Positions 9,398 through 54,066 of a DNA stretch of 64,000 nucleotides are shown one piece after another. The first letter of the stretch is position 1, and every line of letters begins with the position of its first letter. The stretch is from sequence record PZ445442.1. The stretch is one strand, 5' to 3'. The position numbers and the translations under genes are program-made. Below the pieces are notes generated by a model. It searched no databases and was not told the DNA's origin. It saw only the letters and a list, made by a program, of their open reading frames with translations. The DNA comes from a phage.

Positions 9398-12300
9398 ATG
9401 CTTCCAATCCCTTTGCTAAAACTTGGTCGTCATTTCCTCGATAAGAGGGGTGGAATTAAGGAACTTGCTGTTCTGTCATACCCAATAGACAACAGTGATG
9501 GTACAAGCAACACAGTATCCTATGTAAATAGCTTAGCTATACTTTTTGATGATGGTCAACTTAATATCACGGGCTATAACAGGTTCGGAGAGTGCCGCAC
9601 TGGGGATCTTGACACGATAAACTATCCCAACGAGGCTGCCTGGAACGTTGATCATGTGTGGAGAGCAGACCGTGCGTTTGTGATCCGAACTTTTGATAAC
9701 CAGTTTTTCTACATCGGCTGCACTGCAGGGCTTATTGGGTCTGATGCTGCAGGCGGTAATGATGTTTGTGTAAGAGAGTGGACACCTCTTCCTGAACAGA
9801 TCGTTAAAGGATTGCACCTTGACACCCACCCAGAGCGCCTTATTGAGGTGATGGGTGGTATTAACAACACTGTCTGGGTTATTGCAGAGGCAGAAGGCAC
9901 TGGCATACTTAACCTGTATGGGTCTGGTAACAACACCTACGGATCTTTGCATGTAGATAAAAATCAGCATGCAACCCCTGTAAAGATTGGTGAGACATCG
10001 GAAAATCCTGAAACAGGCCCTTGGAAAAACCCAAGCATCAACTGCGAGGTGCATGACAACTCTGTTATTTTCGGTGGTCCTAGGGGTTTCTGGATTGCTG
10101 GATACGACTTTCTGAGAAATAACAGTAGAAACGACCTTGTTTGGCCTCCTGTGCAGATCACTCGTAACGATTTGAGGGGCATTCCTGCAGATGAGGAGTG
10201 GAAAGGGTTTATGTGTGGTCCTAACGGGGCAATAATTGCCACACAGAGGATGCATAGACCCGATGACCAGCAGCTTGTTAACGTATTCTACGGGCAAGAC
10301 GTTTGGGGAGATGACACATGGCGTTCCTTAAATATCACCTACACCCATGAGGTAATAATGGCTCGTGGGTACGGCACAAGTGGCATTTTCTTCAATAATG
10401 GCACTAAGCAGTATCGTGGATTCTCTCGCAACTTGTGTAATGATATTGGCGCACAATCTGCAAACAATAGCCCTAGGGCCAATTTTATCCACTATCAAGC
10501 TCTTGCTACAGCTAAATATGTTGAGCAACGCCTGCCAGTTAGCTGGACAGAGAGTGTTTATTTCCAAGGCATCCACAGGGAAGGTTTCTTAGGAACCTTT
10601 ACTGTTGTTAATGGTAAACTTTGGTGGTCAGGCATCCCAAGGGGGAGTTTTGCAGGCTCTAACAACCTGTTTGGCGGCAGACTTAATAGTCAGGGGTTCA
10701 CAGAGGTTCCTGAGAATTGGTATAAAAATGTCCCAGTAGACAGTTGGGGTGTTGATGATATTTTCGACGTTAACGGTGTTAGCAGCGTTAGCAATATTTA
10801 CATTGGTGACACGGTCAAGATGAAATTGAAGCCTCAGCCAGAAGGGGCTACGTTCATTATTGACAAGATTGAACTGGTAAATGCTGCAGGCACGGTTGTT
10901 ACAGATGCAAATTACCAATTCTCCACCAACTGGAACCACGGCGGGGCCAATGAAGTTGTTGTTACCCAGTATAACAGAAATGTTAACAGACGTGGCCTGT
11001 ACTCTGTAAAAATAACTTATCATGACAAGCATGGCACAGGCAGAACCCATACGACAAGGACTTTGAACTGGAACACCATAGTTCCTGCGTATCCGTCTAA
11101 CGGCAAGTGGCATACCGTTGGTAGAAACAAGCAGTTCCATGTTAACGATACTGTATACTTTGGGCTGAATGGTACTCAGCCTGCAGTAGAAGGTGATACA
11201 TCATATATGGTCCGACTCCACAGAATGGATGCTGGATCAGTCACTTACGATGTTACCCAAGAGATTTATGATCAGAGAAGAAATACCTACAACAACTTGG
11301 TGCAGACACAGGCCGTATGGGAGTTCAACCCTAACGGCAGAGGTGGTAAAATGTTGCAGGTTAACGAGCAAAACGGAACGTCGTTAACTGTCCACGAACA
11401 CCCAGACCCTTGGCCTGATCCTGGAAAACCTCACCCAGGCGCTCGTACGCTGAAAATTGTCAGCCATGATGTAGGATATTTCGGAATACGCTGGGAAGCT
11501 ACAGTAAGGTATGCCGACGGGACAACAAACAACATAGGGATTACACTTGGGGGCACCAGTGAGGATAACTCGCTGAAAATTGCCTACACTCCTAGAGGTA
11601 TTTCTATTGATAATATGGATGTTGTTCGCAACGGTTACGGGGATGTGAACATCAAAGTTACTCTTGGTGAACATCTTGGCGGGGAAAGGATCATCATGTA
11701 CGCCTTTGATCACGACCCACGCACTGACGGAACCTATGCAGACCAAGCGTGGAGCTACCTGATAAGCGCACCTGAGCCAAATACCAAAGAATTCTACTAC
11801 GGTATGAAACGGGATGTGTGCAAGAAAACAGGGACACATGACTGGATTGCAATCTGCGTTAAAGATGAACGTACCGCTTGGGACGAGCCTGTTAACAGAT
11901 GGTTCATAGGAATTCCCACTCGAAGTGATAAATACGTTGAAGAATATATTGTATGCATGGGCGGCACCAACCTCAACATGTGTTGGAACGAGGATGCAAA
12001 CAAATACTCTGATTATGATTATATGAGGGATTACTCTTGCAATCAATGGTTTAACCAAACCGGGTATGCTAATCGACAGTCAAGAGTAAACCCTGCAATC
12101 TTTACAGATACGCAGGTTTTCTTGACAAAACAGGCCAACGAGGTTCAGACCTTCAAGAACAAATACGACCCTAACAAGTGGTTTTATAACTGTTATGGCG
12201 CATTTTTCTGGGGGCCAGGGGAACTGCCTAACGGGGGATCTTGCTTCGAGGCTGCAACTTACGCCAGTGATTACATCATGGGGCAGGTTAAGAAGTATAA

Positions 12301-15031
12301 GATAATTCCAGGGCCTGAAACTCTTGGTAATGCCGTTGATCCTTATATCATCATGACTGCGCTGAGATCAAACATGGACGGGACATCTATGTCTATGCAG
12401 ATCCCAGTAACAAATGGGTACAAACGTGTTGTGATGATTATTAAGTGTGACTTAATAGGTAAACAAGTCCTTGCAGAAAACGGGACCTCCACACATCCTT
12501 TTGAAATTGCTCTGTACTATCAGTTTGCTGACTCACCTTTTTCAGGAGATAAGAGAATATCTGATACAGATGCGCAGCGTTGTAAGAAGGTATTGTTGGG
12601 TGCAGGTTGGTGGTGGTATGAATTTGATTTAACAGACAAATTCACCGACACGTCAAAAGTTGTAACAGGACTTCGTCTAGACCTTGGCGAGAACATGCAC
12701 AAAGCTGTTTGTGATGGCACCTATGGTGACCCTACAGTATATCTGAAGTATGTCTCTTTTGAGCATCCGGAAGATGTTGTTTACGGTCCAAAACTGAGAT
12801 TGTTTGGCAGTTGGATTGCAAAAGACAGGGTAGGCATGGGTAAAAAGGTAAGAGGGTTCTTGGTTGATGCAGGAACAGAAGACATGCTGGTTAATGCAGT
12901 GTGGCCTGAATTACCTGGGACTCAGTGGGATAACTCAGCCAAGTCTATAAACTGGTTCAACATTCACAGAGCTATGTGGACCACTAACTGCTATTTGTGG
13001 AGAGAGCTTAACGATCAGGCTTTTGGCTTCAGTAACGGCAGAAGGATGGCGATCATTTGCTGGACAACGCTGCAAAGATGTTATGACCATGACTACGAGA
13101 TTGGGGGCAGGGCATGGAAAAACATCAGGGATAGAATCATAACCAATTTTGCAGACGACAACGGCGGTGGAGCACATAACTTCGGCACAAGTAGACTTAT
13201 TCACTTGAATGGGTCATCCGCGTATAAGAAAGAGGGTTACTCCGGATCCATGATCGAGTGGGGTCTGGTGAAAGATGCTCGCGTATTGATGGGTCAACAA
13301 CTTGCTGCTGCAATAGGCCCTAACGCAGTGCAGTCTGTTAAGCCAGCGTGGTTCGATATACCAATATGGTCATCTGGAACACCGGGAACTGCGGCAATCA
13401 ACCCTACCACGGGGGATTTGGAAATCTCTTGGGAGGACTTAAAGCAGGTTGGTGGCTGGGATAAGACAGGGTACCAGGTACAATGGTGGAGATCTGACGG
13501 ATCGTTAGCAGCTGATGAGTTTGTTAAGGACAATTTCTACACTATGTCCTCTGCAAAAGCCCAGCAATTGTTTGGTCAGGCCACTCCGTCAACAATCACC
13601 ATGTCTATGTGTTGTAAAGACAACAGAACTGGAGCTTTGGGACCAAGGGTTGCTAAAGTTTTCTCAGGTATTAAATGGAATCTCCCTGTTCAAAGTGTTT
13701 CATGGAAGCAAATAGGTGATAACAAGCTACTGGTTACTCCTGCCTGCCAGTTCAACGCAACCCTCAACGTTGATCCGGCTGTTGCAGCAAACTCAGCTAA
13801 AGCTTCTGACTTCTCTGTGTCTAACACTGCCATGGCAGATGTGAGAAAGATTGATACACTGAATGCCAGAATTACCTGTAAAAACACTTATGGCACATTC
13901 CAGATCATCAACAACTTCACAGATGCTGATTCTAAGGTAGTGAGAACAGCAAGCCAGACTATGCAGTTGGGAACTCTGGCATACTCTGCCTTGATCACTG
14001 AACAATCTCCTACCCTTCAGGGTGGGGGTGTTGGTAAGTTGATCACAACACCTGTGTGGAAGCCAAATGAGTGGGTTGTGTTTGATTTGACTGTAGACTT
14101 CTCCAGTGACAATAACTGGACATGGGTAAGGAATTGCTTGTCACAGTTGATGGGTGGTCCAAGCTCTGTTAGTGATAGCCACGACTCTACTGACCCGAGC
14201 GTGTTCCAGGTGGGTAAAACTCACCCAGAAACTGGGGCACAGTTGCCTGACAGGAAGTATGCTTTGGTTTGCATCTCCAACGGCAAGGCAGATGTAACCT
14301 TCTCAGGGACACACGCATATAACGGCACTTACAACTTCTCTAAAAAGTACAGCCTCAAGGCAGGTAACATTGTAGATGAAGTTGGTGCGTTGTATAATCC
14401 AGGTAACGGCATAGGGATTGTGGGCGGTAAACTGCAGATGCAGGAACCTTCTATTACCCCTTCCAATGTGCCAGGGATTAGAAAGACTTGGGAAAGTAGT
14501 AATACTAACATTGCAACAGTGGATGCTACCACAGGATTGGTAACATTTAAAGCCCCTGGTAATGTCACTATAAAGTTTGTAGTTACGGATGATGCAGGCC
14601 GCAAAACGTCTTCAACATCTTTCACTGTCAGACAGATGGCACCTCAGTGGAGAATGTGGATAGGCACAGCAACAAACGGGGCATACCCTAATCCGGCAGG
14701 GACTTCTGGTATGAAGACTTTCTCTACAAGCAAGCCGATGGAGTACGGCAGCGGTCCTAAGGTAGGGCAGATGGTGTACTTTGGTGCATATATTCCTGAA
14801 ATTATAGGGCTTCCGAGAAGTCAGCTTCAGTTGCTGTTTGGAGCTGGTGTTGACGAGCTTGCCACTTTTGGGTATAGCGACAACATCGAGGCTGCAAGGA
14901 GTTCCGGATGGGTAGGGTTCAGAATGGAGTCTGGAAAGGAAGGCAGGATTCTAGGGACAGCCTCTATAGGTGTTATGTTCCCTGGTGACCAGCAGTATCG
15001 TCTGGGAGCCTACGCGACTTTCTCTCTTTAA
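9398..15031 (+). CDS. giant virion protein (1877 aa) with BIG2-like Ig domain, probable adhesin/tail protein
   Basis: Single uninterrupted 5.6-kb ORF; C-terminal region around 14430-14640 resembles a bacterial Ig-like group 2 domain (ATVDATTGLVTFKAPGNVTI); RBS GGAG. Confidence 0.6.
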   Translation: MLPIPLLKLGRHFLDKRGGIKELAVLSYPIDNSDGTSNTVSYVNSLAILFDDGQLNITGYNRFGECRTGDLDTINYPNEAAWNVDHVWRADRAFVIRTFDNQFFYIGCTAGLIGSDAAGGNDVCVREWTPLPEQIVKGLHLDTHPERLIEVMGGINNTVWVIAEAEGTGILNLYGSGNNTYGSLHVDKNQHATPVKIGETSENPETGPWKNPSINCEVHDNSVIFGGPRGFWIAGYDFLRNNSRNDLVWPPVQITRNDLRGIPADEEWKGFMCGPNGAIIATQRMHRPDDQQLVNVFYGQDVWGDDTWRSLNITYTHEVIMARGYGTSGIFFNNGTKQYRGFSRNLCNDIGAQSANNSPRANFIHYQALATAKYVEQRLPVSWTESVYFQGIHREGFLGTFTVVNGKLWWSGIPRGSFAGSNNLFGGRLNSQGFTEVPENWYKNVPVDSWGVDDIFDVNGVSSVSNIYIGDTVKMKLKPQPEGATFIIDKIELVNAAGTVVTDANYQFSTNWNHGGANEVVVTQYNRNVNRRGLYSVKITYHDKHGTGRTHTTRTLNWNTIVPAYPSNGKWHTVGRNKQFHVNDTVYFGLNGTQPAVEGDTSYMVRLHRMDAGSVTYDVTQEIYDQRRNTYNNLVQTQAVWEFNPNGRGGKMLQVNEQNGTSLTVHEHPDPWPDPGKPHPGARTLKIVSHDVGYFGIRWEATVRYADGTTNNIGITLGGTSEDNSLKIAYTPRGISIDNMDVVRNGYGDVNIKVTLGEHLGGERIIMYAFDHDPRTDGTYADQAWSYLISAPEPNTKEFYYGMKRDVCKKTGTHDWIAICVKDERTAWDEPVNRWFIGIPTRSDKYVEEYIVCMGGTNLNMCWNEDANKYSDYDYMRDYSCNQWFNQTGYANRQSRVNPAIFTDTQVFLTKQANEVQTFKNKYDPNKWFYNCYGAFFWGPGELPNGGSCFEAATYASDYIMGQVKKYKIIPGPETLGNAVDPYIIMTALRSNMDGTSMSMQIPVTNGYKRVVMIIKCDLIGKQVLAENGTSTHPFEIALYYQFADSPFSGDKRISDTDAQRCKKVLLGAGWWWYEFDLTDKFTDTSKVVTGLRLDLGENMHKAVCDGTYGDPTVYLKYVSFEHPEDVVYGPKLRLFGSWIAKDRVGMGKKVRGFLVDAGTEDMLVNAVWPELPGTQWDNSAKSINWFNIHRAMWTTNCYLWRELNDQAFGFSNGRRMAIICWTTLQRCYDHDYEIGGRAWKNIRDRIITNFADDNGGGAHNFGTSRLIHLNGSSAYKKEGYSGSMIEWGLVKDARVLMGQQLAAAIGPNAVQSVKPAWFDIPIWSSGTPGTAAINPTTGDLEISWEDLKQVGGWDKTGYQVQWWRSDGSLAADEFVKDNFYTMSSAKAQQLFGQATPSTITMSMCCKDNRTGALGPRVAKVFSGIKWNLPVQSVSWKQIGDNKLLVTPACQFNATLNVDPAVAANSAKASDFSVSNTAMADVRKIDTLNARITCKNTYGTFQIINNFTDADSKVVRTASQTMQLGTLAYSALITEQSPTLQGGGVGKLITTPVWKPNEWVVFDLTVDFSSDNNWTWVRNCLSQLMGGPSSVSDSHDSTDPSVFQVGKTHPETGAQLPDRKYALVCISNGKADVTFSGTHAYNGTYNFSKKYSLKAGNIVDEVGALYNPGNGIGIVGGKLQMQEPSITPSNVPGIRKTWESSNTNIATVDATTGLVTFKAPGNVTIKFVVTDDAGRKTSSTSFTVRQMAPQWRMWIGTATNGAYPNPAGTSGMKTFSTSKPMEYGSGPKVGQMVYFGAYIPEIIGLPRSQLQLLFGAGVDELATFGYSDNIEAARSSGWVGFRMESGKEGRILGTASIGVMFPGDQQYRLGAYATFSL

Positions 15032-31392: not shown

Positions 31393-31730
31393 GTTTGTGG
31401 AGAAATATCGTTAACTACGTGTGTGGCAATCCGACTCCTGAAGAGAAGGATGTTGTGATTCACGATTTTACTAAAAGATCTCGTGAAAAAGATCTACTGC
31501 TAACAAAGGTGACTGATAAAGATCCTGCAGTAGGGGACTGGGCAGGTTTTGCGTTTACATCGGACAAATACACCTTTAACAAAGGTGACTACCTTGTTGT
31601 GGATTTTAACGAAGACATTGAGGGTGCTGAACCTTACTATCAAACCCTTATTGTTGCAGGGTGTGTTAATCTCTCTGCAGGTATGCACAGTTTGATTCTT
31701 TTTGAGCTTGACTCTGAAGACCTTGAGTAG
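31389..31730 (+). CDS. hypothetical protein
   Basis: 113-aa ORF overlapping helicase stop. Confidence 0.4.
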   Translation: MSLWRNIVNYVCGNPTPEEKDVVIHDFTKRSREKDLLLTKVTDKDPAVGDWAGFAFTSDKYTFNKGDYLVVDFNEDIEGAEPYYQTLIVAGCVNLSAGMHSLILFELDSEDLE

Positions 31731-31736
31731 TAAGAT
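31708..31736 (+). promoter_or_regulatory. sigma70-like promoter upstream of methyltransferase gene
   Basis: TTGACT-17nt-TAAGAT, followed by 5' stem-loop GGGGAGG-CACT-CCTCCCC (31748-31765) and RBS AAGGAGA. Confidence 0.45.
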
Positions 31737-31791
31737 GTGAGTATAAAGGGGAGGCACTCCTCCCCACAAAAACTAAGGAGAGCACCAAACG

Positions 31792-33118
31792 ATGAGTAAA
31801 ACCAAATTAGAACTAACCTGGATAGGTAAAAACGAGCGCAAAAAGTTAGAGCCACACATTTTGTTAGAAGATTCTAGCAAGTCTTACCACAGCCAGAAAG
31901 TGACCGAAAACGATATTTTTTGATAATAAACTGATTTTTGGAGATAACTTATTAGCATTGAAGGCGCTAGAGCAAGAGTATGCAGGCAAAGTGAAGTGTG
32001 TTTACATAGACCCACCATTCAATACTGGAAGGGCTTTTGAGCACTACGATGATAGCCTTGAGCATTCCATTTGGCTGGGCTTAATGAGGGATAGGTTAGA
32101 AATAATTCGTAATCTTCTAAGTGATGATGGGGTAATATTCGTTCACTTAGATGATTGCGAAATGGCGTATTTAAAAGTTTTGATGGACGAGATTTTTGGT
32201 CGTGCAAATCAGTTAAATACCATATCGATGACCACAAATTCCCCTTCGGGATTTAAGGCAACAGGAGCCACAGTTTTCTCCACAGCAAACTTTTTGCTTG
32301 TATATGCAAAAGATCACACCCAGAAACCGCTTAACAAAATCTATATACCTAAAGGGTACGATACAGGATATAACAAATACCTATTAAACCCGGATGACCA
32401 TTATAAAAATTGGACGTGGTGCAGTATTGCCGATGCGTTTGCAAAGGCCAATGGCTATAAGGATGCAAAAGAAGCCAAGAAAAAACTACCTGACACATTC
32501 GATGATGAATTAGCACAATTCGCAATTGATAATGCAGAACGTGTATTTCAATCTGTTGCAATTGGTGGTGGTGCTAAAATAAAGAGAAAAGAAACTATCG
32601 AGAAGTCAAAGAAAGATAGGGATAAGGTTTATGTACATCCAAATGAGGATGTTGAAGGATTTTATATCGCAAATGGTAGGCAAATGGTCTTTTACTCCAA
32701 TAGGCTTTTGGAAATTGACGGTGAGATGCAACCTGCGGAACTAATAACTGATGTTTGGACAGACATTGGTTGGAATGGAATAGCAAATGAAGGCGGCGTT
32801 AGTTTCAAAAATGGGAAAAAACCAGAAGCGCTTTTGAAGCGGATTTTCGAAATGTGCACGCGAGAAGGCGATTTGGTATTGGATTCATTCGGTGGTTCGG
32901 GAACTACTGCTGCTGTAGCTCATAAGATGAAAAGACGCTGGATCTCAATCGAGCTAGGTGATCATTGTCATACCCATATTATTCCGCGCTTGGAAAAAGT
33001 GATCGATGGCGAAGATCAAGGTGGTATTTCTAAGTCTGTAAACTGGCAAGGTGGTGGTGGCTTCCGTTATTACAAACTTGCCCCGGCCTTAGTTGCGAAA
33101 GATAAGTCTGATCAATAA
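31792..33118 (+). CDS. N6-adenine DNA methyltransferase (Mod-like), interrupted by +1 frameshift at T6 tract 31916-31921
   Basis: N-terminal 43 codons (MSKTKLELTWIGK..ENDIF) stop at TGA 31921; the +1 frame continues FFDNKLIFGDNLLALKALEQ..VKCVYIDPPFNTG (DPPF motif IV) to 33118; removing one T restores a single ORF. Confidence 0.6.
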
Positions 33119-33131
33119 AGAGTACAATCAA

Positions 33132-33437
33132 ATGATGAAACGTTATAAACCATACACTTTTGAAATCGATTTTGAACTTGACGATATGTTCACTGTGGAA
33201 GCTCAGGCAGTTGTCCAGTTGCCAGACCCAGAGTGTCGTGATTCTGATGTTGACTATTATGGATTTAGACAGATCACTGATGTGCATGTTTACCACAACG
33301 GTGAAGAGGTGGACTTCCACAAACTGCCAAACGATATGCGCCACTCAATTTACAAACGTGCAGCCCGTGAACTAGAGTCCTATCTTGATGCAGCGACGAC
33401 AGCAGCTGCATTTGCCGAAGAAGTGGGAGGTTTCTGA
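33132..33437 (+). CDS. hypothetical protein
   Basis: 101 aa from ATG 33132; upstream part of the track ORF overlaps the methyltransferase. Confidence 0.4.
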   Translation: MMKRYKPYTFEIDFELDDMFTVEAQAVVQLPDPECRDSDVDYYGFRQITDVHVYHNGEEVDFHKLPNDMRHSIYKRAARELESYLDAATTAAAFAEEVGGF

Positions 33438-34378: not shown

Positions 34379-35140
34379 TTGAAATTTATCTACAAAGAAC
34401 ACTACCACAAAGGTGTTGTGTGGAGTCTATTTGACGGGTCTGGTGGTGCAGTCATTGACTGGGCAAAAGCTGGGTACCTGTGCCTGTGCTTTAATGCAGA
34501 AGGCGCTGATCACGGCAGTTATGCAGAGGTGATCACCGATCATCCCAACATTCACTATGTGGACTATTGGATTGACCCGTGGTTCCCTCAGGAAACTTTT
34601 TGCATGTATCCGGCTCCAGATTTTATTCTTGCATTTCCTCCGTGCACGCATTTAGCGGTATCAGGTGCTGCACATTTTAAGAAAAAGCTGGCTAAGGACC
34701 CCATGATCCAAATTAATGCTGTAAAGGATGCTCGGGTTGCGGAAGAGCTGGGAGAGATTTACGATTGCCCGTGGCATGTAGAGAATCCTGTGGGTGTTAT
34801 GTCCACACTGTGGCGCAAACCTGATTACCGTTTTCACCCTTCGGATTATGGCGGGTATTTACCGGAAGATGATGTAAACCCATGGTTTCCTGAATTTATA
34901 GCTCCACGTGATGCCTATCCAAAAATAACTTGCGGCTGGATAGGTAATGGATTTATAATCCCAGCCACAAAACCTGTCCCGCAAATAGTTGACGCGGTTA
35001 GTGGGTACTCCATGCAACACGCTAAGCTGGGTGGAAAGAGTGCAAGAACGAAGATGATCCGAAGCCTCACACCACGTGGCTGGGCAAAAGCTGTATTCTT
35101 AGCAAACGAGCCTGTAGTAAGGAGAAGGGCCAATGGTTGA
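34379..35140 (+). CDS. DNA (cytosine-5)-methyltransferase-like protein
   Basis: Motif I SLFDGSGG, motif IV-like FPPCTHLAVSG (PC dipeptide), motif VI-like HVENPVG; probable TTG start at 34379 after RBS AGGAG (track ORF starts 34349). Confidence 0.5.
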   Translation: MKFIYKEHYHKGVVWSLFDGSGGAVIDWAKAGYLCLCFNAEGADHGSYAEVITDHPNIHYVDYWIDPWFPQETFCMYPAPDFILAFPPCTHLAVSGAAHFKKKLAKDPMIQINAVKDARVAEELGEIYDCPWHVENPVGVMSTLWRKPDYRFHPSDYGGYLPEDDVNPWFPEFIAPRDAYPKITCGWIGNGFIIPATKPVPQIVDAVSGYSMQHAKLGGKSARTKMIRSLTPRGWAKAVFLANEPVVRRRANG

Positions 35141-35804
35141 CTGGAGCAAGTATTTCACCTACAGTGACGGCAAACTGTTCTGGGCGTACACTGCAAAAGC
35201 CGGAAGGGGCAGGGTTATACATTACGCAGGTGAGGAGGCCACAGGCACAGATAAAAATGGCTATAGAGTGATATATGTGTCAGGTGTTGGGAGTGTTCGT
35301 AGGCATAGAATAGTTTGGGAGATGCATTACGGGGAGATACCTGAGGGACTTGTTGTGCGGCACAAGAACGACATAGCGGGCGATGATAGGGTAGAGAACT
35401 TAGTCCTAGGTACACAGGGCGATAATGCACGAGACATGATCTACAGTGACAAACTGAGCATTAACAATACCTCAGGGTGTAGAGGTGTACGCTACCATAG
35501 AGGCATAAAAAGATGGATTGCATCTGTTGGAGATATATACTTAGGGTGTTTTAAGACAAAAGAGGCTGCAATTGAATGCAGAAAGTTATGGGAGAAGGGA
35601 AAATTCGTCCCGCAAGAGTTGGATGTTAGAAACACTAGCGGTGTAACAGGGGTGTTCTATGTGCCGAGCTCTGGAAGGTGGAGAGTCAGAGTGCAAAGCG
35701 GCAAAAAGAGAAAGAGCTATGGCACTTACAATACTTTAGAAGAAGCAAAAACTGTAAGGGATAGAGTGATGAAAGAGATTGAGGAGTTTAAAGATGGGGA
35801 ATAA
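35133..35804 (+). CDS. HNH homing endonuclease with AP2-type DNA-binding repeats
   Basis: 223 aa; HNH region RHRIVWEMHYGEIPEGLVVRHKNDIAGDDRVENL; two AP2-like repeats (GCRGVRYHRGIKRWIASV, SGVTGVFYVPSSGRWRVRV). Confidence 0.6.
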   Translation: MVDWSKYFTYSDGKLFWAYTAKAGRGRVIHYAGEEATGTDKNGYRVIYVSGVGSVRRHRIVWEMHYGEIPEGLVVRHKNDIAGDDRVENLVLGTQGDNARDMIYSDKLSINNTSGCRGVRYHRGIKRWIASVGDIYLGCFKTKEAAIECRKLWEKGKFVPQELDVRNTSGVTGVFYVPSSGRWRVRVQSGKKRKSYGTYNTLEEAKTVRDRVMKEIEEFKDGE

Positions 35805-37930: not shown

Positions 37931-40321
37931 ATGAGTATGTGGTCGTTCGATTTTGAGTCATCCGGTTTGCTGGAAGACCCAGATCTTTATTATCACTGCG
38001 GTCTGTTTAAAGAGCTGAATAAGAACCGTTTTATGCTGTTCCTTCCTCTAAATGACCGCACACACTACTCCGAGGAGGATATAGAAAAGGCTAAGAACTT
38101 CATTCTGGCAAAGAAAACTCTTTATAAAGATTTTGAAGTTCGCATAGCAGATTTTTCGGAGTTGGAAGGTTGGCTTACAGGCAATTCTGACTGGTCACCA
38201 ACAGCTTTGAACTGCCATAACTGCTACAGTTATGACTTTATGCTGATGGAAAGATTATCCGGTATTCATTTTGATATGTTCCGTGATCCTAAATGCATGG
38301 GGACTATCAACGATCACCAGGTTAACCTGTTTGATACGTTGGCGATGAGCCGAATCTTGTGGCCTGATCGCCCTTTACCAAAAGGTTGTCCGGACTCTGT
38401 ATTCAACCCGGTTACTAAGAAAATGCAGCCTGTTGGTCCCCACGGCCTTATGGCATGGGGCTACGCCCTTGGTAACCAGAAAGTTCAAATTGATGACTGG
38501 CGCGATCTTCCGTTGTGGAAGTATGTGGATCGTGTATTCGAGGACGTTATCATCCAGGAGCTGCTCTGGAAAGAGCTGGTAGCGGAATCAAAAGGTGTAT
38601 TCTACGGCAAATCTGACATGCAGAACTTTATGTACGATCCTGCCAAAGAGAAGCCGAAAGGGTTCAAGAAGATCACCTGGAAGAACGCATTACGCCGAGG
38701 CATGCTGCAGCACTTCCTGATGGAGCTGCAGGCCCGTCAGGGTGTGTATTTTGACATAGATGGAGCTATTGCTTTACGTGACCGTTGCGATGCGTGGATG
38801 AAAGAAATCGCTGATCGTGTTGAACCACAACTACCTTTAAAAGAGTTGTCAATGTCTCAGCGGCCCAAGTTCCCTGAAAAGCCGTTTAACCAAGATGGGA
38901 CAATCTCCAATAATGGTTGGAAATGGTTAAAAGATAAGCTTGGCTATCCTGTAGATATGAGCGCTTTAGAGTTCAAAGCCCCGCCTAAGCGAGCATTTAC
39001 CTCCACAGGGGATGTCAGCAAGATGGGGATAAAATGGTGTGAAGAGATGGGCTGCAAAGACCCTGATAAGATGGCTGATTTCTTGAGAGGCTATATTAAG
39101 GGCACTTCCACACCACAACCTTTACCTAAAGAGCTGATGGATCAGGCAATAAGTGATCTGCAGCAGAAGCGAATGCCTGACTGCAAGATACCTATGAAAA
39201 TCAGCAATCAGGACGACATTAAGCGGTATCTGATCAGTGCTGGCTGGCTCCCGACGATGTGGAGAACTAAGGATGTAACTAAAGACAGCAAGAAGAAAGC
39301 CCTACCTGATGCAGATGTTGATGCACGAGTATATGCATATATGGACGAGCTTTTAGAGTCAGAGTATTGTGATCTGATTATCAACTTCTGGAACAAAACT
39401 GATGCTAAGTTCCAGACAACCGTGCACAAGTTCCGAAGCTTTCCTAACTCCGAAAGGATTAAAAAGGAAGTATTCGGGAAAATACGTAGAAAAGCTAGGG
39501 CACTTATTACTTCTCCGCAACTGAAAGATACGTTTGGACACCTATGCCCGAATCTTGAAAAATTGAACGGAGAGATGGCTAAAGATATCGTCTTGTGGTT
39601 ATCTTTGCGAAACCGCAGATCGGTACTTGATCCAATCAAGGAGGATAAGGTTGATACTGGTCTTCTTAATCACCCACGTTTGAAGATTGACCATAAGCTT
39701 CCTGCTAAAAGCTCTGGATTAACAAACACTTCCAGACAGAAACACAGTATTTGTGCAAACATGCCTAAACCATCTCCTAAAGTGGTCATGGGTAAAGAGA
39801 TGCGTAGTCTGTGGGGTGTTCCTCCAGGATACTTTGAGATCGGTATTGACGGGTCCAACTTAGAGCAGCTTATCGGGGCTTGGGGTGCCTTTGAGTTCGA
39901 CAACGGATTGTATTATGATGTTGTAAGTAACGGGGACGCACACCAAAACAATGCTGAAGCATATACAAAAGTGGCAGGCAGAGAGGTGTCTCGTAACGAC
40001 GGTAAACCTATCACGTATGGGGTTATGTATGGGGCACAAAAAGATAAAGTTGCAGATATGCTGGACATCTCTCCAGAACTGGGGCAGAGAGTAATTGATG
40101 CTCTCTGGGATGCCAACCCAGGTCTTAAGGGGCGCAAAGAGGATCTGGAGAAATTCTGGGAAGCAACAGGTAAGAAATTTATCTACTCTTTTGACGGGCA
40201 TGCCATTTGGACCCGCTCTAAACACTCTTTGCTTAATGCATATCAGCAAAATGGCGGTGCATCGTTGTGCGACTTGGTCGGAATCCTCATGCACCACCAA
40301 ATGGTGAAGCGTGGATGGTAT
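37931..40321 (+). CDS. family A DNA polymerase, exon 1 (3'-5' exo + polymerase motifs A and B)
   Basis: Exo I FDFESSGL; motif A GIDGSNLEQLIGAW; motif B KPITYGVMYGAQ; track ORF runs 12 codons further into the intron to a stop at 40360. Confidence 0.65.
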
Positions 40322-41196
40322 GATGAAGGTGTTCGTCGTATTATTTATTACCATAAATAACATTGTGGCTTCGTGCAGTGATGCACGTCGAAAACCTCTT
40401 TAATTGACGGGAAGGCTAAGTTGACTTTTACACCTAAACATGGTAAAAGCTCAATATGCTAATCCGCAGCGAAGACTAAAGGGGTGTAGTTAAAATGGCT
40501 AGATCAGTTGATTATCACGGATATACCGTGTTTGATGATGGAACAATACCTTTATCGAAACGTGATCATACAACAATGTTCTGTTTTGATAATGGTCGAG
40601 GTTACCTTTGCGTAACCATGTTCATCGAGGGGAAGCAGTGCACAAAAGGTGTCCACCACTTGGTTGCTGAATGCTTTGTATCAAACCCTGATCCTGAAAG
40701 GCTCACATGGGTGAACCATAAGGACGGAAACAAATACAACAATGCATACTGGAACCTTGAATGGACCACCCCTGGTGGAAATATCAAACACGCTTATGAT
40801 AATGACCTCAGAGTAAGGCCAGTCGGTGAGTATAATGCCAACGCTGTACTGACCGAGGATGAGGTAACGGAGATTTGCGAACTGTTACAAAGTGGTTTAC
40901 GACAATGCGAGATTAGGGATCTTGGGTATCCTTATGAGACGGTCAGAGCCATAAAGCAAAGAAGACAGTGGAAACATATCTCTAAAAACTACACCTGGTA
41001 GTAACGTTCAGAGACTATCGAAAGCATAGCGCCAACATAAATTGGTGCGAAGAAGCGAGTAGAGTAGGCCAGCAAGTGCGGTCGAAATGGGAGGTGCCTT
41101 GGTAACAAGGTAGTGAGATAGTCCGATCCATACAGGAAACTGTATGGCTGTGCACGTAATGGTGCGGGGTAGCTTAACGACCTACCTGAACTATTG
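40322..41196 (+). mobile_element. group I intron with HNH homing endonuclease ORF, inside the DNA polymerase gene
   Basis: Elements matching the conserved P (AATTGACGGGAA, 40402-40413), Q (AATCCGCAGC, 40461-40470), R (GTTCAGAGACTATC, 41006-41019) and S (GAGATAGTCC, 41115-41124) sequences; P9-like hairpin CCATACAG-GAAA-CTGTATGG (41128-41147); U at -1 (40321) and terminal G (41196); boundaries inferred. Confidence 0.6.
40495..41001 (+). CDS. intron-encoded HNH homing endonuclease
   Basis: 168 aa; HNH region GVHHLVAECFVSNPDPERLTWVNHKDGNKYNNAYWNLEW; lies between intron Q and R elements. Confidence 0.65.
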   Translation: MARSVDYHGYTVFDDGTIPLSKRDHTTMFCFDNGRGYLCVTMFIEGKQCTKGVHHLVAECFVSNPDPERLTWVNHKDGNKYNNAYWNLEWTTPGGNIKHAYDNDLRVRPVGEYNANAVLTEDEVTEICELLQSGLRQCEIRDLGYPYETVRAIKQRRQWKHISKNYTW

Positions 41197-41550
41197 GATG
41201 AGTACCAACTTCAAGTGCCTGACACACCTAAGTATAAAACCGTATACACCTTCGACACAATTGAAGAGCTGGAAACATTTAAGGCCAAGCAGGAGGCTAA
41301 ACTTCATGTGTTCGACGGTCATAAGTACAAAAAGGCACGCAAGGATGAGGATGGAAACGAAGTGGTTGACAAGGACGGAAATACGGTGTACGATCCTATC
41401 CTGAACGATGACGGAAAGCTTGAACTTATCTGGAGCCCTGTGGGTGAAATGGTGGTGCATTGCTTCTGGCAAGCTTCTAAAATGATGGGAGTCCCGTTCC
41501 AGATCACAGGTGAATACTTGTGTGGTCGTAATTGGGGTGATTGTCACTAA
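41197..41550 (+). CDS. family A DNA polymerase, exon 2 (C-terminal region)
   Basis: Begins DEYQLQV, which joined to exon 1 gives GWY|DEYQLQV (motif C-like); ends GRNWGDCH with terminal His, as I recall for T7 gp5 and E. coli Pol I. Confidence 0.55.
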   Translation, partial: DEYQLQVPDTPKYKTVYTFDTIEELETFKAKQEAKLHVFDGHKYKKARKDEDGNEVVDKDGNTVYDPILNDDGKLELIWSPVGEMVVHCFWQASKMMGVPFQITGEYLCGRNWGDCH

Positions 41551-53526: not shown

Positions 53527-54066
53527 ATGATCAGCGGGGCAAGTTTTATTATTGGCGCTATTGCTACGGCTTTAATTGTAAATAAGATCCAGGATAAAAA
53601 GGAAAGAGGAAGTACCGCCCTTGCAGAATATCCATTTTGGGCATTCAACGATAACGAAGATTATATTATAAAGTATAAAAATAAAGAAGGTGACCAAGTA
53701 ACACCGCGACCGATCCCGGCTTACAAAATGCAGGAAACACTATACCGCCTGGAGGCGGGAGGCGCAAAAATTGTAGACTTTTGGGGATACGACCACACAG
53801 ATCAGGAAGTTATAAAGCGCCGTATCCGGGCTATTCAGGCCAATATTGAAGTTAGCAAGGGGGAATATATGAAAATTAATTTCGAGAAAATTGTAAAGCG
53901 CCCTCATGATTCCGAAGAGCTGCCAGAACGCCGCCAGCGTAACAATAAACTGAATAAGCCAAAAAGGTTTGGGAAGATCTGGCGTAATCATTATGATCGT
54001 AAATTGCCCGGCCTACTTTTGGAACGTGAACGACAGGCAGAACGATACCGCCATAAAGACAAATAA
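53527..54066 (+). CDS. hypothetical membrane-anchored early protein
   Basis: 179 aa; N-terminal hydrophobic helix then basic C-terminus; RBS AAAGGAGAAAG. Confidence 0.5.
   Translation: MISGASFIIGAIATALIVNKIQDKKERGSTALAEYPFWAFNDNEDYIIKYKNKEGDQVTPRPIPAYKMQETLYRLEAGGAKIVDFWGYDHTDQEVIKRRIRAIQANIEVSKGEYMKINFEKIVKRPHDSEELPERRQRNNKLNKPKRFGKIWRNHYDRKLPGLLLERERQAERYRHKDK

Follow-up and report, generated by a model that had tools for sequence, protein, structure and literature searches.

The sequence record of Escherichia phage EmilHeitz (Bas49) shows one extra base, private to this phage, in a homopolymer that lies within the coding sequence of a conserved and already known phage gene; lesions of this kind are ordinary. 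The gene is predicted from its sequence to encode an orphan Type III Mod-like (β-class) N6-adenine DNA methyltransferase. The window, by which we mean the whole 64,000-nt stretch of phage DNA analysed here (PZ445442.1), is 100% identical to MZ501062.1, the record of this rV5-like Vequintavirus from the BASEL collection; window positions equal MZ501062.1 record positions minus 32682. On balance, and by a modest lead over an even chance, we read the extra T as a genuine and recent mutation, private to EmilHeitz, that abolishes or nearly abolishes gene function.

A split methyltransferase gene

The open reading frame that starts at ATG 31792, on the plus strand like all features of the gene described here, has 43 codons (product MSKTKLELTWIGKNERKKLEPHILLEDSSKSYHSQKVTENDIF) and ends at TGA 31921–31923, which is followed by TAA TAA. 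This 5' fragment of the methylase gene (31792–31923) thus closes with a premature stop placed directly at the end of a run of exactly six T residues (31916–31921). The +1 frame is open from 31904, reads ...IFFDNKLIFGDNLLALKAL...IDPPFNTG... and stops at 33116–33118, with no further stop or indel in the 3' part of the gene (31922–33118; repaired residues 44–441 and the stop codon). Deletion of one T yields a single ORF of 441 aa and 1326 nt, the length of the intact gene in relatives. Because the two frames overlap solely within 31904–31923, only a frame change at the T-run can bring back the full product. A first-pass annotation made from the letters alone had described this arrangement (an ATG at 31792, 43 residues, TGA at 31921 after T6, and a +1 frame to 33118 that becomes a full-length ORF with one T fewer), and the sequence agrees with it throughout. 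The good ribosome-binding site that it reported is also real: the Shine–Dalgarno-like AAGGAGAG at 31775–31782, 9–11 nt 5' of the ATG, is invariant in six aligned relatives and so accompanies intact genes as well.

The repaired protein matches Pfam PF01555 (N6_N4_Mtase) over residues 67–393 with 144 bits (cut-off 26.7; E = 8.5e-42), and its closest solved structures are the Mod subunits of Helicobacter pylori (6k0w; 6k0w_B, E = 2.8e-28) and EcoP15I (4zcf; 4zcf_A, E = 2.4e-24), which bears out the initial call of a Mod-like N6-adenine methyltransferase. Catalytic motif IV, DPPF (residues 73–76; 32009–32020), lies N-terminal to the AdoMet-binding motif I, FGGSG (residues 366–370; 32888–32902), the latter placed by C-terminal lobe alignments with CcrM, M.MboIIA, and M.PvuII; this is the β-class order. 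Repaired residues 2–88 align with EcoP15I Mod 52–138, and residues 6–90 with H. pylori Mod 56–141. The Mod matches take in the N-terminal ELTW.GK segment, the GDN...DPPF region of motif IV, and the FxGxG of motif I; the phage protein is the shorter one, at about 440 aa compared with 618–644 aa for these Mod subunits. Since these alignments extend over residues 2–90, the 43 residues encoded before the frameshift belong to a conserved part of the enzyme and are not a chance ORF. A single unbroken frame with both motifs and the conserved N-terminus is absent in EmilHeitz and present in all relatives examined.

The genes around the methylase encode a PIF1-like SF1 helicase, small ORFs without a Pfam match, a Dcm-like ORF, and an HNH homing endonuclease, and no Res subunit gene (SF2 helicase-nuclease) was found among these neighbours. 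A true Type III restriction–modification (RM) system was accordingly rejected, as the Mod homology is present but the adjacent res gene is missing; without a Res partner, the product is best described as a predicted orphan Mod-like adenine methylase in the replication module of a lytic phage. The literature that we found on vequintavirus methylase specificity consists of gene lists, with no methylome or biochemical data among it.

At this locus, the EmilHeitz record annotates only a 344-aa CDS, bas49_0070 (32084–33118), from an ATG at 32084 and under the name 'putative N6 adenine methyltransferase'. That start corresponds to residue 98 and lies past DPPF, so that bas49_0070 as annotated has no catalytic motif IV and would not be a functional methylase.

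The first-pass annotation had further credited the gene with its own promoter and a 5' stem-loop, and had taken both as signs that it is meant to be expressed. The promoter was not borne out: sigma-70-like sites numbered three in 2 kb, compared with 4.7 ± 2.1 in shuffled sequences, which is not above chance. The stem-loop is real, a GC-rich hairpin (GGGGAGG-CACT-CCTCCCC; seven pairs, six of them G–C) at 31748–31765 in the spacer that separates the methylase gene from the ORF before it. It is terminator-like on the minus strand only and is conserved, although WalterGehring and inoa differ in the loop; since relatives with an intact gene share it, it tells nothing about the frameshift. What these elements were taken to say about expression applies to the ancestral intact gene and not to the T6 allele.

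Tract length and selection among relatives

Tract lengths were surveyed by megablast with 41–42-nt probes in which every 28-base seed must cross the entire tract. The T6 probe retrieved one record, EmilHeitz itself, and the T5 probe retrieved 77 phage records with exact flanks. A 300-nt blastn query starting at the ATG matched 87 phage records; all 59 other records listed among these are in frame, spanning 299 nt (T5) or 302 nt (T5 plus one codon), and all 59 are annotated as complete methylases. The phages naswa, WalterGehring, inoa, and Phage 203 have T5 and one intact 1326-nt CDS each, the divergent alleles of FV3, SYGMH1, and YN3 (dS about 0.35–0.39) have T5 too, and the same length is found in all eight alleles fetched (dS up to 0.39). 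Environmental sequences were searched by matching the flanks with 3–9 unspecified bases as the tract, and six of six contigs (one from IMG/VR and five metagenomic; human gut, food, and others) read TTTTT. In relatives, the T5 run is part of ATT TTT GAT and codes for I F D. Comparison with related phage genomes, which the first-pass annotation had proposed as a check, thus gives T5 in every other copy examined and T6 in EmilHeitz only.

When the 1.9-kb region 31500–33400 was compared with the phage collection, the methylase segment was carried by 86–87 of 117 related records; about one relative in four may thus lack it as an accessory gene or carry a more diverged version. Sixteen unannotated 'Campylobacter phage' records (MG0656xx, e.g. 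MG065635.1 and MG065658.1) are 97–98% identical to E. coli rV5-like phages across the region. Their stated host is Campylobacter jejuni, an attribution that looks doubtful.

The intact gene shows dN/dS values of 0.05–0.15 across the eight alleles and is therefore kept by strong purifying selection. Compared with its relatives, the repaired EmilHeitz allele gives 0.07–0.15, and it has six substitutions unseen in four close relatives (R175H, S326G, and four synonymous changes). We rejected an old pseudogene, as the repaired allele has neither extra lesions nor a relaxed dN/dS; given that it is free of other decay, the lesion is either recent or not real. The EmilHeitz gene otherwise matches its intact rV5-like orthologues (the 'putative adenine methyltransferase' of rV5, naswa_99 QHR68913.1, and WalterGehring bas51_0070 QXV85580.1). 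All lie at one locus, flanked on one side by the PIF1-like helicase/113-aa ORF and on the other by the small ORFs that precede the Dcm-like gene, with about 99% nucleotide identity (14–15 differences in 1326 nt) and a shared RBS and upstream hairpin, whereas EmilHeitz alone has T6 instead of T5 at codons 42–43, together with its six private substitutions.

Private mutation, consensus error, and regulatory alternatives

If the mutation is genuine, a T would have been added to the T5 Ile–Phe run (ATT TTT GAT) in the EmilHeitz lineage only, recently and most likely through slippage while the homopolymer was replicated. Ribosomes that begin at the normal start would then terminate after 43 residues, and the remainder of the gene, including DPPF and FGGSG, would lie out of frame without a good start of its own, which would make the allele null or nearly null. 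Such a loss would be tolerated, and the enzyme dispensable, because the phage was isolated and propagated on E. coli K-12 without restriction systems and because sister phages with the intact enzyme gain no measurable protection from it against the six RM systems tested. An occasional +1 slip of tRNA-Phe at U UUU UGA could yield a little protein of wild-type sequence, and low-level adventitious rescue of this kind is plausible; no signs that slippage at this site is selected or programmed were found. We infer a true T6 in the phage DNA and a null allele, with leakiness, if there is any, at or below the percent level.

The main competitor is a sequencing or assembly artefact: the gene would be intact in the phage itself, with T5, and the sixth T would have entered the deposited record as a consensus error. 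We hold this to be a serious possibility, if a less likely one than a genuine mutation. In its favour, no other copy examined shares T6, the repaired allele looks sound in every respect, and Bas49 behaves like Bas48 on RM hosts. Two further points in its favour come from an indel survey of the whole window against WalterGehring and naswa, checked against the annotations. Within the same 64-kb window, EmilHeitz has another private homopolymer indel of ±1 nt, with G5 at 53859–53863 where naswa and WalterGehring have G6; the G5 probe retrieved EmilHeitz only (1 record) and the G6 probe 72 records, and the change fuses two small overlapping ORFs (354 and 198 nt in relatives) into the 540-nt bas49_0112 (53527–54066). 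WalterGehring, which passed through the same laboratory pipeline, also has a private homopolymer indel (MZ501111.1 74727–74768, window-equivalent 42010), G5 compared with G4 in 31 records, and its extra G shortens bas51_0080 to 168 nt, compared with 228 nt in EmilHeitz and naswa. Indels need not be specific to that pipeline, however, since naswa, sequenced in another laboratory, has a private frame-breaking indel too: one base is missing relative to EmilHeitz at window position 11680, and the tail-fibre gene is split into naswa_69/70, whereas its counterpart bas49_0041 (9398–15031), a lateral tail fibre with an intimin domain, is one 5.6-kb CDS in EmilHeitz and WalterGehring. Private indels in all three genomes, roughly one or two in 64 kb of each, mark ±1 homopolymer lesions that touch ORFs as background, biological or technical.

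Against a consensus error stands the quality of the data. An Illumina consensus at 130× is very rarely wrong at a T-run of five or six bases. The BASEL genomes were sequenced on an Illumina NextSeq 550 and assembled in Geneious, with 130× coverage for Bas49, and the BASEL authors settled local ambiguities by PCR and Sanger sequencing. The T6 base call in EmilHeitz is thus probably real. Of the options that the first-pass annotation had raised, sequencing error survives in the form of a consensus error, beside the private mutation that it had called a pseudogene, and the regulatory readings fall away; together with a truncated product, they retain only a very small share of the probability.

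One of these regulatory readings is a phase-variable tract, whose length would change often and toggle the phage methylase in the manner of the simple sequence repeats known from bacterial Type III mod genes. The gene is Mod-like, the lesion lies in a homopolymer, and one record has a different length. In the phasevarions of Haemophilus, Neisseria, and Helicobacter, the tracts are long tetranucleotide or homopolymer repeats that vary within populations, and known phase-variable homopolymers typically have eight or more bases. EmilHeitz resembles these mod genes in having a Mod-family gene whose reading frame is set by the length of a simple repeat. It differs from them in that the tract, at only 5–6 bases, is too short for classic phase variation, is invariant at 5 bases, save for EmilHeitz, in over 90 independent copies, and consists in its T5 form of plain Ile–Phe codons in a conserved protein segment. 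With T5 in 77 exact-flank records, in frame in 59 of 59 listed, and in six of six environmental contigs, no tract-length polymorphism was found besides EmilHeitz among the 87 phage records, IMG/VR, and the metagenome contigs, and we regard phase variation as very unlikely.

A programmed +1 frameshift is harder still to credit. Here T6–TGA would be the functional state and the full-length enzyme would arise by a regulated slip at U UUU UGA, much as in prfB (RF2, CUU UGA C), where a slippery P-site codon likewise precedes an in-frame UGA and a +1 shift restores full length. UUU UGA is listed among +1-prone sequences (PMC3500957, Table 2), tRNA-Phe re-pairs perfectly one base downstream (AUU UUU UGA), and the product would equal the wild-type protein (...D-I-F-D-N-K...). 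A programmed shift site is expected to be conserved and is usually accompanied by a stimulator, yet every relative examined has an in-frame T5 and no stop. Nor was an SD-like stimulator (GGAG, GAGG, AGGA, or GGGG) found in 31890–31921, upstream of the shift site. Of 200 shuffled sequences, 197 gave a more stable fold than the 79 nt downstream (z = +2.06), which speaks against a stimulatory RNA structure. The EmilHeitz site therefore differs from prfB in lacking an upstream Shine–Dalgarno stimulator, conservation of the shift site, and autoregulatory logic, and the suggestion of programmed slippage made from the sequence alone fails on these points.

Two variants would leave some enzyme without any programming. 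T6 could be real and the allele leaky, with an unprogrammed tRNA-Phe +1 slip at U UUU UGA giving a few percent of wild-type methylase and partial genome methylation, which we consider improbable to much the same degree as phase variation. Were it true, methylation on the phage genome would be hemi- or sub-stoichiometric, and short coding homopolymers could, at low frequency in phage populations, switch anti-restriction methylases on and off or dim them. Slightly less probable again is an active, N-terminally truncated enzyme made by re-initiation at TTG 31958 (residue 56) or at the annotated ATG 32084. Beyond the stop the frame stays open to 33118, the GenBank record has its CDS begin at 32084, and a product from TTG 31958 would retain motif IV. 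A start at 32084 lies beyond DPPF, however, and its product would lack the catalytic motif; TTG 31958 is preceded only by a GGAG 13 nt upstream and would lose residues 1–55, which align with the conserved Mod N-terminus, including the FGDNLLALKAL segment.

Restriction phenotype, implications, and neighbouring genes

We compared Bas49 with Bas48 (CarlMeissner), which has an intact gene, in the BASEL S1 raw plating data for six RM systems. Efficiencies of plating (EOP) were about 0.1–1 for both phages with EcoKI, EcoCFT_I, and EcoPI, about 1e-3 for both with EcoRI, and below detection for both with EcoRV; with EcoCFT_II, they were 0.1–0.5 for Bas49 and 0.02–0.09 for Bas48. The frameshifted phage thus does not differ from the intact one in RM sensitivity, in a group that the BASEL paper describes as 'exceptionally susceptible' to RM (Vequintavirinae). 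Equal plating implies that the intact enzyme gives no protection against the six tested systems, and for the same reason it neither supports nor opposes loss of the enzyme in Bas49. As BASEL phages were isolated on MG1655 ΔRM, an anti-restriction methylase would have been under no laboratory selection. The same data contain one marked difference between the two phages: on the ΔwecB host, which lacks enterobacterial common antigen (ECA), EmilHeitz plates at about 1e-3 and CarlMeissner at 0.03–0.5, which indicates a much stronger ECA dependence of EmilHeitz and is unrelated to the methylase.

The finding matters chiefly for curation, as the record of a widely distributed reference phage misrepresents a full-length gene that is broken by one base. 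Compared with its relatives Bas48, Bas50, and Bas51, Bas49 may be naturally methylase-null, which calls for caution in restriction, defence-system, and methylome experiments. If it is null, it offers a convenient near-isogenic comparator for the role of the conserved orphan methylase. The finding has no bearing on recoding or phase-variation mechanisms.

Several neighbouring genes deserve mention in their own right. A second putative methylase, bas49_0074 (34379–35140), lies 1.2 kb downstream of the frameshifted one; it is annotated as 'Dcm-like C5 cytosine methyltransferase' and has no Pfam match at E ≤ 0.001, and its sequence contains FDGSGG and PPC, which resemble motifs of C5 methylases. 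Between this Dcm-like gene and the primase/helicase gene is an HNH/AP2 homing-endonuclease gene (35133–35804) that is missing at the same position in WalterGehring and naswa (BLAST gap 35128–35793), which points to a mobile insertion that varies among close relatives. The DNA polymerase gene bas49_0077 (37931–41550) is annotated as two joined pieces with bas49_0078 (40495–41001) nested inside; bas49_0078 is a homing-endonuclease ORF, an intron- or intein-like insertion in the polymerase gene, which in naswa is one uninterrupted CDS of 2778 nt.
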